Assembly (NCBI RefSeq): GCF_988243305.1
Contig: NZ_OZ547136.1
DNA: 64,000 nucleotides
Reading direction: 5' to 3' (one strand)
The first letter of the stretch is position 1, and each line of letters begins with the position of its first letter. Below are positions 33,001 to 36,000 of this stretch, one piece after another. The position numbers are program-made.

Positions 33001-36000
33001 ATGGCTGACGCCCTGCGCCTGGCAATCTGCGATGCGGGAAGTGGGTGAACTACAGCCAGCCAGTAATATAACCGCCAGCAGGGAAAACGATTTAATGGAG
33101 CTATTCATCATTGTTAACCTTAAATAATGTACGGAAAATTGCGAATAAGAAATTGCTGTTAAAATTAGAACGAATATCCCACGCCGACACCCGCACCGAA
33201 ATCAGATTGTGTATCCGCAGAAATACCTGCTTTAAGTACCGTATGCGTTCCGGCATTAAAAGATGTTCCTACAGACACCGCAGATTCACCGTTGAACGTT
33301 CCCGCTCCCGCTGACACCATCATCAAGTCACCGGTTTTCACCTGTGGTTGTGAGGCGATAGCGATGGCAGATGCAGTTCCCGCATTGGCTTCTTTACGAT
33401 TGTCCTCAACTTCGTTTTTCAGAGAATCGAAATGGTTATTGAGCGTGTTAATTTGTTGGCTGTTATCTGCGACCCGTTTTTGCGTGTTGGTTAACTGTTG
33501 CTGCGTTTGTGCGGAATCTTGTCTCAGACTTTCAATTTGCTCATGTGCCTGGACAGACTTCTGCGCCAGACTTTGCATTTGTTTATCGTATTGAGCCCTT
33601 TCTTTTTGCTGTTGTGCTGCCACATCGGTTGTCAGTGCATTCATTTTCTGCCCTTGTTCCGTGGTAGTGCGCTGATTAGCCTCATTTTGAGCCGCCAGCC
33701 TGGCATTAATCATCTCCTGATAATGCGCGGTATTTTGCGTATCTCCAGTCGCGGCGAGCGTTTTTTGTGTGGCTACGATCTGCGCCTGTTGCTCTGTAAT
33801 TTGCGTTTGCTGGGCATCAGTTACCGCAGACTGTCGGGCGTTGATCATGCTCTGATAACGGGCGGTTGTCTGTACATCACCTGTAGCGGCAACGGTTTTT
33901 TGTCCTGCGTCAGGATCTGTCTGGACAGGGGGAGTCTGAGTGGTATCAGGTGTTTCAGAAGGGATGTAGTGATGTTCAGTCAAATAGGTATACGCAGCGG
34001 GGCTGTTGTCTGTGCGTTCTAAAAAGCGGGTAATCTTCTGCTCAATCTCCGATTGCGACATGCCAGAGTTAATGGCTGAAAGCTCTGTTGCCGCCGCTTC
34101 AATGGTATCACCAGCTAAAACAACAGGGCTGGATGTTGCTGAAATTATGAGTGCCAGTAAAGCTACGTTTACAGTTTTCATTCATTTTCTCTTGTTCAAA
34201 ATAAGTCGCATTAATGTTTCTATAAGAAACAAATAATATTGTTTTAAGAAATAAACTGCGTTGCAATTTAATCGAAATCTACGCCGCCATTTGTGTGATG
34301 TAAAGCGCATTTTTGTCTGGTGTAAGCGTGAACACCACCAATAAGAAACAAAAAATGTTTCTTATATAAATAAAATCGAAAATCATTTTGTGCTCTTTCA
34401 ATGTAAAAAAGAGTAAAGACTTGTTTTGATAAGCGAAATAAATTCTGTTTCTGGACTAAACGTGAAGCGGTTCCTGATGTGTGCTAAAATGCGTTTCTTT
34501 GATAAATCTCAATTTTTAAGAGGTTTACGCCAGGCAGGAAAATTTAAATGAATGAATTTGAGAAGATTTTTAATGAAATGAATCTGGACCGGGCATTGCT
34601 ACCGATCCTTTTTCGTTCGAACCGGTCAACAGTGTGGAAATATTTAAGTGGCGATAGTACGGCTCCTGCCTCAGCTATGTCACTGATTATGCTGTTGCAG
34701 TTAATCCAGAAACGAAACCCCGATCTGTTAGCCGAATGGTTAACGCTTTCTGATTTCACCATTCCGCCAGAAGTTTACCTGGACCAGCCTGATTACTGGA
34801 AAGGGTGGGTGTATACGCAACACAAGGTCAATAAAAACGTCCTGGAATATCTAAAAAAACATTATCCGGATGAAGACCAAAAAAACATGAATAAAGGTAG
34901 TGACGAGTAATTTGCCAATGCCAGTTAATATAGCGGAGGCGGCCTACGATTCGGGCGCAGACTTCCAGGCATGATAAGACGCGCCCGCGCCGCATCAGGC
35001 ATCAGCGCATAACCGCCGGATGCGGCGTAAACGCCTTATCCGGCCTACAATTCGGGCATATTTTGTAGGCATGAAAAGACGCGTCAGCGTCGCATCAGGC
35101 AATGACCGCACGGATGATCAGCGTTATCCCTTCTATCGCAATGACTTCAACATGCGTACCTGCACCGAGATCCTCGCTGGCGCTGACAGGCCATGAACTG
35201 TCACCGACGCGCATATGACCGCGCCCGTTGACCAGTGGAGATTCCAGCACAAAACGTCGGCCAATCAGCTGCTGCCCGCGCTGGTTTAAATGACTGTCGC
35301 TGTGCTTTTGTTCGCGCACCCGCCGCGACAACCATTTCCACCACAGCCAGGCGGCGAGCAGCGTCAGGACGGCAAACATCACCCCTTGCCACTCCCAACC
35401 CAGCGGCACCAGCCAGACCACCAGGCCGGTAATCACCGCTGCCACGCCGCTCCAAAGCAGATAACCATTGCCGCCCAACATCTCGGCTGCCAGCAGCAAC
35501 CCGCCGAGACTGAGCCAGAAAATATGTGGATGAACGACCATTAACTCCATCATGGCTGAGTCCGCTTGTTGGCGCTGTCTTTCACCAGCTCGGCAATCCC
35601 GGCAATCGACCCCATCAGGCTGCTGGCCTCTAATGGCATCATCACTACTTTGCTGTTACTGGACGAACCGATCTGCTGTAACGCTTCGGTGTATTTCTGT
35701 GCGACGAAGTAGTTCACCGCCTGAATATCACCGGAGGCAATGGCTTCAGATACCATTTTGGTGGCGCGGGCTTCTGCTTCGGCAGAACGTTCACGCGCTT
35801 CGGCCTGTAAGAATGCCGATTGACGTTCACCTTCCGCTTTCAGGATTTGCGACTGTTTTTCACCTTCAGCTTTGAGGATTTCCGCCTGACGGATCCCTTC
35901 CGCTTCAAGGATGTAAGCGCGTTTGGTACGTTCCGCTTTCATCTGCGCGTTCATTGAAGAGATAAGCTCTGCCGGTGGGCGCACGTCGCGAATTTCAATA

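Follow-up and report, generated by a model that had tools for sequence, protein, structure and literature searches.

A REP/BIME cluster fused to the 3' end of ybbJ as the probable right-hand border of the variable cueR-ybbJ slot in Escherichia

Repetitive extragenic palindromic (REP) sequences carry a conserved GTAG/CTAC tetranucleotide at one end, and types Y and Z2 are specific to Escherichia coli (PMC8266576). REPs are proposed to be non-autonomous elements mobilised by the transposase TnpA_REP, for which the GTAG motif is strictly needed (PMC8266576). In E. coli, about 60% of REPs are found between convergent genes, and of the intergenic regions flanked by convergent genes about 30% contain one; the REP325 array is a partial Rho-dependent terminator and a stabiliser of upstream mRNA, and the nucleoid role of naRNA4 has been questioned (bioRxiv 10.64898/2026.03.23.713779). 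Here we describe a REP cluster in a 64,000-nt stretch of an E. coli chromosome (RefSeq assembly GCF_988243305.1, contig NZ_OZ547136.1), hereafter the window. The cluster lies at 34931-35100, between a 120-aa open reading frame (ORF) and the nfeD-family gene ybbJ, and is a bacterial interspersed mosaic element (BIME) composed of three full palindromic units and one remnant. It is very probably a native Escherichia BIME, an alternating Z2/Y mosaic of the REP325/naRNA4 kind, that is fused to ybbJ and serves as the constant right-hand border of a gene slot of variable content separating this gene from cueR. The parts of the cluster are as follows.

34931-34947, plus strand: outermost unit, a Y remnant, TAGCGGAGGCGGCCTAC (from alignment with outer Y units that are intact in other alleles)
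34948-34964, no strand: tail-to-tail linker from the Y remnant to the distal Z2 (from direct repeat D2)
34965-35000, minus strand: distal Z2 unit, degenerate (fuzzy consensus match with 5 differences, inside the naRNA4 match)
35001-35014, no strand: head-to-head linker from the distal Z2 to Y (aligns with the internal linker of the naRNA4 model)
35015-35048, plus strand: canonical Y unit with its CTAC tail intact (0 mismatches to the Y pattern)
35049-35064, no strand: tail-to-tail linker from Y to the proximal Z2, AATTCGGGCATATTTT (from sequence; conserved in other alleles with the trimeric autotransporter adhesin, or TAA, module)
35065-35100, minus strand: ybbJ-proximal Z2 unit, whose head GCCTGATGCG holds the ybbJ stop codon (2 mismatches to the Z2 pattern)

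Read on the minus strand, the units follow one another as Z2 - Y (inverted) - Z2 - Y (inverted, remnant). They alternate and are joined by short linkers, which is the BIME-2 type of arrangement. The GTAG/CTAC tetranucleotide is found in Y (35045-35048), in the proximal Z2 (35065-35068) and in the Y remnant (34944-34947). The distal Z2 does not have it, as CCTGG stands in place of the CCTAC tail, and CATGCC stands in place of CAGGCC in the same unit. The Y remnant has kept its CTAC tail; a deletion between GCCG repeats inside it has removed 18 nt of the hairpin. The two Z2 units are 89% identical at a spacing of 100 (direct repeat D1). The linker at 34948-34964 duplicates the other tail-to-tail linker region, as shown by a second direct repeat, D2 (34940-34956 vs 35041-35057), which is 94% identical at a spacing of 101.

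To identify the units, a 34-nt Y consensus was searched across the 64 kb allowing up to 3 mismatches, with 100 shuffles as the control. The single match was the Y unit at 35015-35048 on the plus strand, without a mismatch, and the 100 shuffles gave none. The Z2 consensus matched 35065-35100 on the minus strand with 2 mismatches, where the shuffles predict 0. Independent support for both consensus strings came from Rfam: naRNA4 (RF02564), the model of the Y+Z2 pair of REP325, matched 34968-35045 on the minus strand with 71.9 bits (gathering score 59.5, E = 1.7e-12). Megablast queries that included the cluster had a median of 22-23 hit sites per E. coli genome, and a query from the unique flank had 1. 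The Y hairpins fold with -21.6 and -21.1 kcal/mol (z of -5.2 and -3.5), and the Z2 hairpins with -11.6 (proximal) and -14.3 kcal/mol (distal); folding of the Y remnant gave no REP hairpin.

These results bear out the preliminary description of this DNA, which had placed three or more REP-type units here. It had given their extent as 34931-35094; the start is right, and the cluster runs on to 35100 and so takes in the ybbJ TGA. Although REPs are expected to be strictly extragenic, the proximal Z2 shares 6 nt with the end of ybbJ; the remainder of the cluster is intergenic. This overlap is a minor departure that leaves the identity of the REP unaffected. The cluster is a genuine and ordinary REP/BIME; the locus is new and the kind is well known. 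The BIME is treated as native because its units are of the E. coli-specific Y and Z2 types. Its arrival as part of imported foreign DNA was rejected, as the neighbouring cargo genes are low in GC and the units are E. coli-specific.

Among described systems the closest is REP325 (yjdM-yjdN)/naRNA4. Both arrays alternate Z2 and Y, have short conserved linkers, a Y+Z2 period of about 100 nt and a variable number of units, and lie in a 3' untranslated region (UTR). They differ in size, 12 units in REP325 vs three and a remnant here, in the degeneracy of two of the units here, and in the overlap with a stop codon. The BIME at ybbJ is not in the K-12 REP catalogue because K-12 does not have it. Its position between the 3' ends of the 120-aa ORF and ybbJ is the commonest context of REPs, that of the convergent-gene REPs described as bidirectional terminators and degradation blocks (bioRxiv 10.64898/2026.03.23.713779), with the difference that in the ancestral allele ybbJ converges directly on cueR without a spacer. 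The inverted pair formed by Y and the proximal Z2, with its GTAG guide motif, resembles the REP doublets (REPINs) of REP-associated tyrosine transposases (RAYTs) such as TnpA_REP. The distal Z2 lacks GTAG and would therefore not be recognised by the E. coli TnpA_REP. In the comparison of alleles the cluster bears no sign of recent transposition, although no search aimed at tnpA_REP was made; strains differ by tandem copy-number changes and small deletions. A further parallel is with REPs near stop codons; in 2015 Liang, Rudd and Deutscher reportedly found that REPs no more than 15 nt from a stop codon down-regulate translation. The ybbJ REP hairpin begins at the stop codon and includes it, and it differs from those REPs in also contributing to the codons for the last two residues.

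RefSeq annotation of the region was supplied by a locus with 99.4% identity over cueR-ybbJ, the level that strain 7/2 shows to the window. The features that border and fill the slot are given below.

32078-32485, plus strand: cueR
32483-32485, plus strand: cueR stop codon, the left limit of the variable slot in all alleles (junction sequences of 8 alleles)
32489-34181, minus strand: cargo, consisting of a 67-aa ORF, a 140-aa lipoprotein and a 338-aa YadA-anchor TAA (from ORFs)
34548-34910, plus strand: 120-aa ORF, "hypothetical protein" in RefSeq, convergent with ybbJ, with the BIME between both 3' ends
35095-35553, minus strand: ybbJ, NfeD family (ORF; Pfam NfeD, E = 8e-13; RefSeq annotation of identical loci)
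35095-35122, minus strand: allele-specific terminal 28 nt of ybbJ, encoding ...TLIIRAVIA* (from comparison with the K-12-type allele)
35550-36467, minus strand: qmcA

The last gene of the qmcA-ybbJ unit is ybbJ, and its transcription runs towards the BIME. The cargo genes lie on the ybbJ strand, downstream of ybbJ, and have a GC content of 0.31-0.47 vs 0.52-0.60 in the flanks. The autotransporter matches Pfam YadA_anchor (E = 7e-12), and the product of the 120-aa ORF has no family match in Pfam or NCBIfam.

Alleles of the slot were counted in 5426 complete E. coli genomes, and three alleles cover 5404 of them. In the empty allele, found in 3204 genomes including K-12 strains, the cueR TGA directly abuts the ybbJ stop with 0 nt between them and no REP. 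The allele with the 120-aa ORF, BIME and ybbJ is carried by 1400 genomes; a search with the whole cueR-ybbJ interval found 1378 genomes with at least 80% coverage. The third allele (800 genomes) has no TAA module. Here a 407-aa ORF is followed by a degenerate two-unit BIME, with an 11-nt deletion in Z2, and then by ybbJ. The 407-aa ORF additionally adjoins cueR in three of the TAA-type loci compared (numbered L008-L010). This gene lies directly after cueR (L003 1909-3132, minus strand; L008 909-2132) and matches no family in Pfam or NCBIfam. About 800 complete E. coli genomes, and E. albertii, have no other cargo; the copies in L002, L009 and L010 are frameshifted.

The same ybbJ-terminal BIME, with the TGA in Z2 and with different cargo, was found in all five further genomes compared (E. 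albertii, E. whittamii, Escherichia sp. E1V33, Escherichia sp. MOD1-EC7003 and E. coli SCPM-O-B-8794). An unusual linker, CACACCTGGAAATCTGTACCAAAC, is common to E. albertii and the E. coli alleles that have the 407-aa ORF only. Every occupied allele has the BIME, whether the cargo is the TAA module, the 407-aa ORF, both or almost nothing. Because it is present in every occupied allele and in other Escherichia species, the BIME is the constant right-hand end of a multi-allelic slot. Judged from these comparisons, it is independent of the TAA module and appears to be older than it, predating or outliving any given cargo.

The number of units varies. Two are present in L006, L009 and L010; three and a remnant in the window, L004, L005 (EDL933) and L007; four in E. 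whittamii; five in L008 and L013; and eight in Escherichia sp. E1V33, whose array (L012) has a 101-nt period with 3.9 copies at 91% identity by Tandem Repeats Finder. Array size thus ranges from 2 to 8 units and changes in steps of one Y+Z2 repeat of about 100 nt, the spacing in the window being 100-101 nt. Such drift in unit number would arise within the array by slippage or unequal exchange.

Comparison with the empty allele placed the left limit of the variable DNA exactly at the cueR stop codon and the right limit at 35122/35123, within ybbJ. The alleles become homologous again from 35123, 28 nt into ybbJ, so that the variable side takes in the BIME and a further 22 nt of the gene. When two-unit TAA-type alleles were compared with the 407-aa-only alleles, the outer Y and 8 nt beyond it (ATATAGCC) were common and the sequences then diverged. 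Identity therefore ends 8 nt past the outer Y, which puts a rearrangement breakpoint at the edge of the BIME. In L013 the BIME adjoins the start of the 67-aa ORF. E. coli SCPM-O-B-8794 (L014, ~7390-7560) has lost the TAA module by a join between the 3' ends of cueR and of the 120-aa ORF, through which CueR acquires a new C-terminus, and it still carries a two-unit BIME. The limit of the slot probably falls at the BIME because this is fused to ybbJ: DNA to its left is exchangeable, and removal of the BIME would truncate ybbJ. Rather than an agent of cargo gain or loss, it would simply be the final stretch that can be retained or pared back with ybbJ left whole.

The ybbJ TGA (35095-35097) makes up bases 4-6 of the proximal Z2 (GCC-TGA-TGCG), and the two codons before it (ATT GCC) likewise reach into the REP head and the base preceding that head. 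GCCTGA within a Z2 head ends ybbJ in 15 of the 15 occupied loci examined, across species. Within the terminal 28 nt, 13 positions (46%) differ from the empty allele; the next 113 nt have 1 mismatch, and divergence beyond is about 2-3%. Despite the 13 differences the 28 nt encode a similar peptide. YbbJ ends in ...TLRVRAVSST* in Salmonella, in ...TLHIRAVSS* in empty E. coli alleles and in ...TLIIRAVIA* in occupied ones. The 22 nt before the Z2 head resemble a Y head plus linker (CATCCG-GCGGTTAT; p ~0.008 by local alignment and shuffling), and cmscan gave a weak naRNA4 match over the ybbJ end, at 26.7 bits below threshold and mostly from the Z2 half. That the 28 nt are a disguised Y unit was not adopted, given this p value and the sub-threshold score.

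The preliminary description had presented the cluster as the right-hand junction of the TAA-module insertion, lying between the inserted ORF and a conserved ybbJ 3' end, and had proposed aligning strains with and without the insertion to place the breakpoints. It holds insofar as the BIME is the right-most variable DNA and 3204 of the 5426 genomes, without the module, have no REP at this junction. The junction is not purely intergenic, however: the break coincides with the BIME edge against the 407-aa-only alleles and falls inside ybbJ against the empty allele, so that the ybbJ 3' end is not conserved and its stop is supplied by the REP. Nor is the BIME tied to the TAA module, as it occurs apart from it in the ~800 genomes with the 407-aa ORF only and in L014, and is also present in E. 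albertii, in E. whittamii and in cryptic Escherichia lineages. The finding that the description had said would count against it, the same cluster in strains that lack the insertion, was thus made in part, since the 800 genomes and L014 keep the BIME whereas 3204 genomes lack both. A literature search for REPs at island junctions found nothing useful.

To determine the polarity of the change, CueR was used to scan one genome per species, which yielded 80 loci. A junction without a REP, at which cueR and ybbJ abut or overlap, was found in Salmonella arizonae, Citrobacter sedlakii, Enterobacter, Klebsiella, Kluyvera, Lelliottia, Trabulsiella and others. Because this REP-free compact junction and the ...RAVSS(T)* end occur in other genera, the empty allele keeps the ancestral arrangement and the BIME-ended ybbJ is derived. 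The opposite, that the empty allele is a secondary deletion, was rejected, as a deletion could not restore a compact junction and a ...RAVSS(T)* end common to Salmonella and many genera. From its distribution, the derived state is old or widely exchanged.

The hairpins would form the 3' end of the qmcA-ybbJ mRNA. By likeness to REP325 and to the convergent-gene REPs, we infer terminator, mRNA-stabiliser and insulator roles for the BIME. It would be expected to terminate part of the transcription from either side, probably with help from Rho, and to block 3' exonucleases between the convergent 120-aa ORF and ybbJ. Since the TAA genes lie on the same strand downstream of qmcA-ybbJ, partial termination would mean less read-through into the adhesin genes and less antisense transcription over the 120-aa ORF, and the idea of an insulator, put forward in the preliminary description, is reasonable on these analogies. 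An intrinsic terminator was not favoured, as the scan was no richer than shuffled sequence (3 terminator-like matches vs 2.2 expected). As the stop codon lies in a hairpin, the BIME may also reduce the yield of YbbJ translation.

Several observations weigh against this picture of a native, functional border. A stem-weakening change (CATGCC) is found in both Z2 units, and one of them is without the GTAG/CTAC motif. The fold of the whole cluster as RNA is unexceptional on the ybbJ strand (z -0.94). Genome-wide, mRNA half-lives are not extended by terminal REPs (bioRxiv 10.64898/2026.03.23.713779). The sole terminator-like match is weak, lies on the ybbJ strand (35096->35078, then TTTTCATGCC) and needs an A>T change specific to the window; other alleles have CTTATCA at this position. 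As to the history of the slot, the TAA module may either have entered next to a BIME that was already there or have been lost from a fuller allele. The terminal 28 nt of ybbJ may be an old diverged allele, a gene end partly derived from the BIME, or a join at microhomology.

We considered whether the BIME instead drives recombination at the slot, the TAA module having been inserted or excised by REP-REP or gyrase-linked exchange, so that the REP causes the junction. REPs have been reported at the join-points of duplications and as targets of insertion sequences, and BIME-2 elements as gyrase sites. Three rearranged alleles (407-aa-only of E. coli, 407-aa-only of E. albertii, and L013) do end at the outer BIME edge or within about 10 nt of it, yet end-points there are also expected from selection against truncation of ybbJ. 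Among the junctions of 8 alleles no REP was found on the cueR side, nor between the 407-aa and 67-aa ORFs. With no partner in either place, REP-REP exchange cannot explain the gain and loss of cargo and was rejected as their cause. In L014, moreover, the breakpoints at which the module was lost lie in cueR and the 120-aa ORF rather than in the BIME. We therefore regard a recombination device as very unlikely.

It is more conceivable, but still doubtful, that the BIME is a selfish or neutral passenger, REPIN-like, that TnpA_REP spread into the new 3' UTR after foreign DNA had split cueR from ybbJ, with no role for its neighbours. The decay of the units would fit, as GTAG is lost in one, another is internally deleted, the Z2 stems are weakened and 11 nt of Z2 are deleted in the 407-aa-only alleles; so would the drift of unit number among strains. 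The retention of the proximal Z2 head with its stop codon in all 15 occupied loci, across species, speaks against it. On the identity of the element the passenger is no true rival to a native border; the two differ solely on benefit to the host, which sequence cannot decide. Somewhat less likely again is an effect on translation, in which the hairpin at the stop would stall ribosomes, the mRNA would be cleaved and trans-translation would lower YbbJ relative to the REP-free K-12-type allele. The UGA does sit in the 5' arm of the Z2 hairpin, and termination of translation may therefore be impaired. The proximal hairpin is weak in the window, however (the -11.6 kcal/mol given above), and the effect is known from only a few genes.

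A native BIME at the border of the slot would also separate two transcripts that meet in K-12, where cueR-ybbJ is a convergent excludon detected in at least 50% of RNA-seq samples (PMC12288877). Occupied alleles part the two genes by 0.8-5 kb, so that the overlap at the K-12-type junction (L001 1908/1909) is removed, and this loss could affect regulation. A bolder reading, which we consider unlikely, is that the BIME is an ancient, genus-wide anchor of the slot whose arrival rewrote the ybbJ end (a new C-terminus, a REP stop, and 22 nt partly BIME-derived or joined at microhomology) and replaced the cueR/ybbJ excludon by REP-based control of the 3' end. If true, the regulation of qmcA-ybbJ, and possibly that of cueR, would differ from K-12 in 41% of E. 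coli strains.

The locus illustrates how cargo can change beside a REP cluster that itself persists, across species, as the stable border of a variable gene slot. In about 41% of E. coli genomes a REP supplies the stop codon of ybbJ and contributes to its last residues. K-12 represents the REP-free compact allele, and in pathogen lineages such as O157:H7 the 3' end and 3' UTR of ybbJ are different. Transcription of qmcA-ybbJ may read through into the adhesin genes, and would then cross the BIME. These points are relevant to work on the small YadA-type adhesin module, qmcA-ybbJ or cueR; importance beyond annotation is small, and the evolutionary interest is modest.

The same site is used in other genera. 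In Citrobacter, Kosakonia, Phytobacter, Siccibacter and others a block of about 2.86 kb with two genes (714 aa and 251 aa) lies at the cueR|ybbJ site on the ybbJ strand.

L018 7408-10238: 2.86-kb two-gene block; equivalents in L019-L022, L024, L027, L031-L036, L042, L045, L055, L068, L070, L072, L079, L080 and L086

No REPs were found in this block in Citrobacter, Kosakonia, Phytobacter and Siccibacter, and a role of REPs at the site in other genera was rejected, the block there being a different one. The cueR|ybbJ site is a recurrent slot across Enterobacteriaceae.

Further variation was seen around the adhesin. Its length differs among strains, at 338 aa in the window (33165-34181), 349 aa in L007 (1588-2637) and 436 aa in L009 (2946-4256). 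The spacer at 34182-34547, between the divergent adhesin gene and 120-aa ORF, is very AT-rich (GC 0.31-0.38) and is likely a regulatory region. The stretch from the adhesin to the 120-aa ORF expands to about 1.1-1.8 kb in L007 and L008. Beyond the slot, a perfect short hairpin, GCCGGATGCG-CAGCAT-CGCATCCGGC, lies at 38062-38089 directly after the fetB stop; it resembles a REP head rather than a full palindromic unit. Upstream of cueR, K-12-type strains carry a 98-nt frameshifted remnant of the 3' end of an HlyD-like type I secretion adaptor gene (L001 1407-1504; window 30906-32081). This remnant indicates that the island encoding a giant adhesin and its type I secretion system (window ~6502-32081) was deleted in those strains, not gained in the strain of the window.

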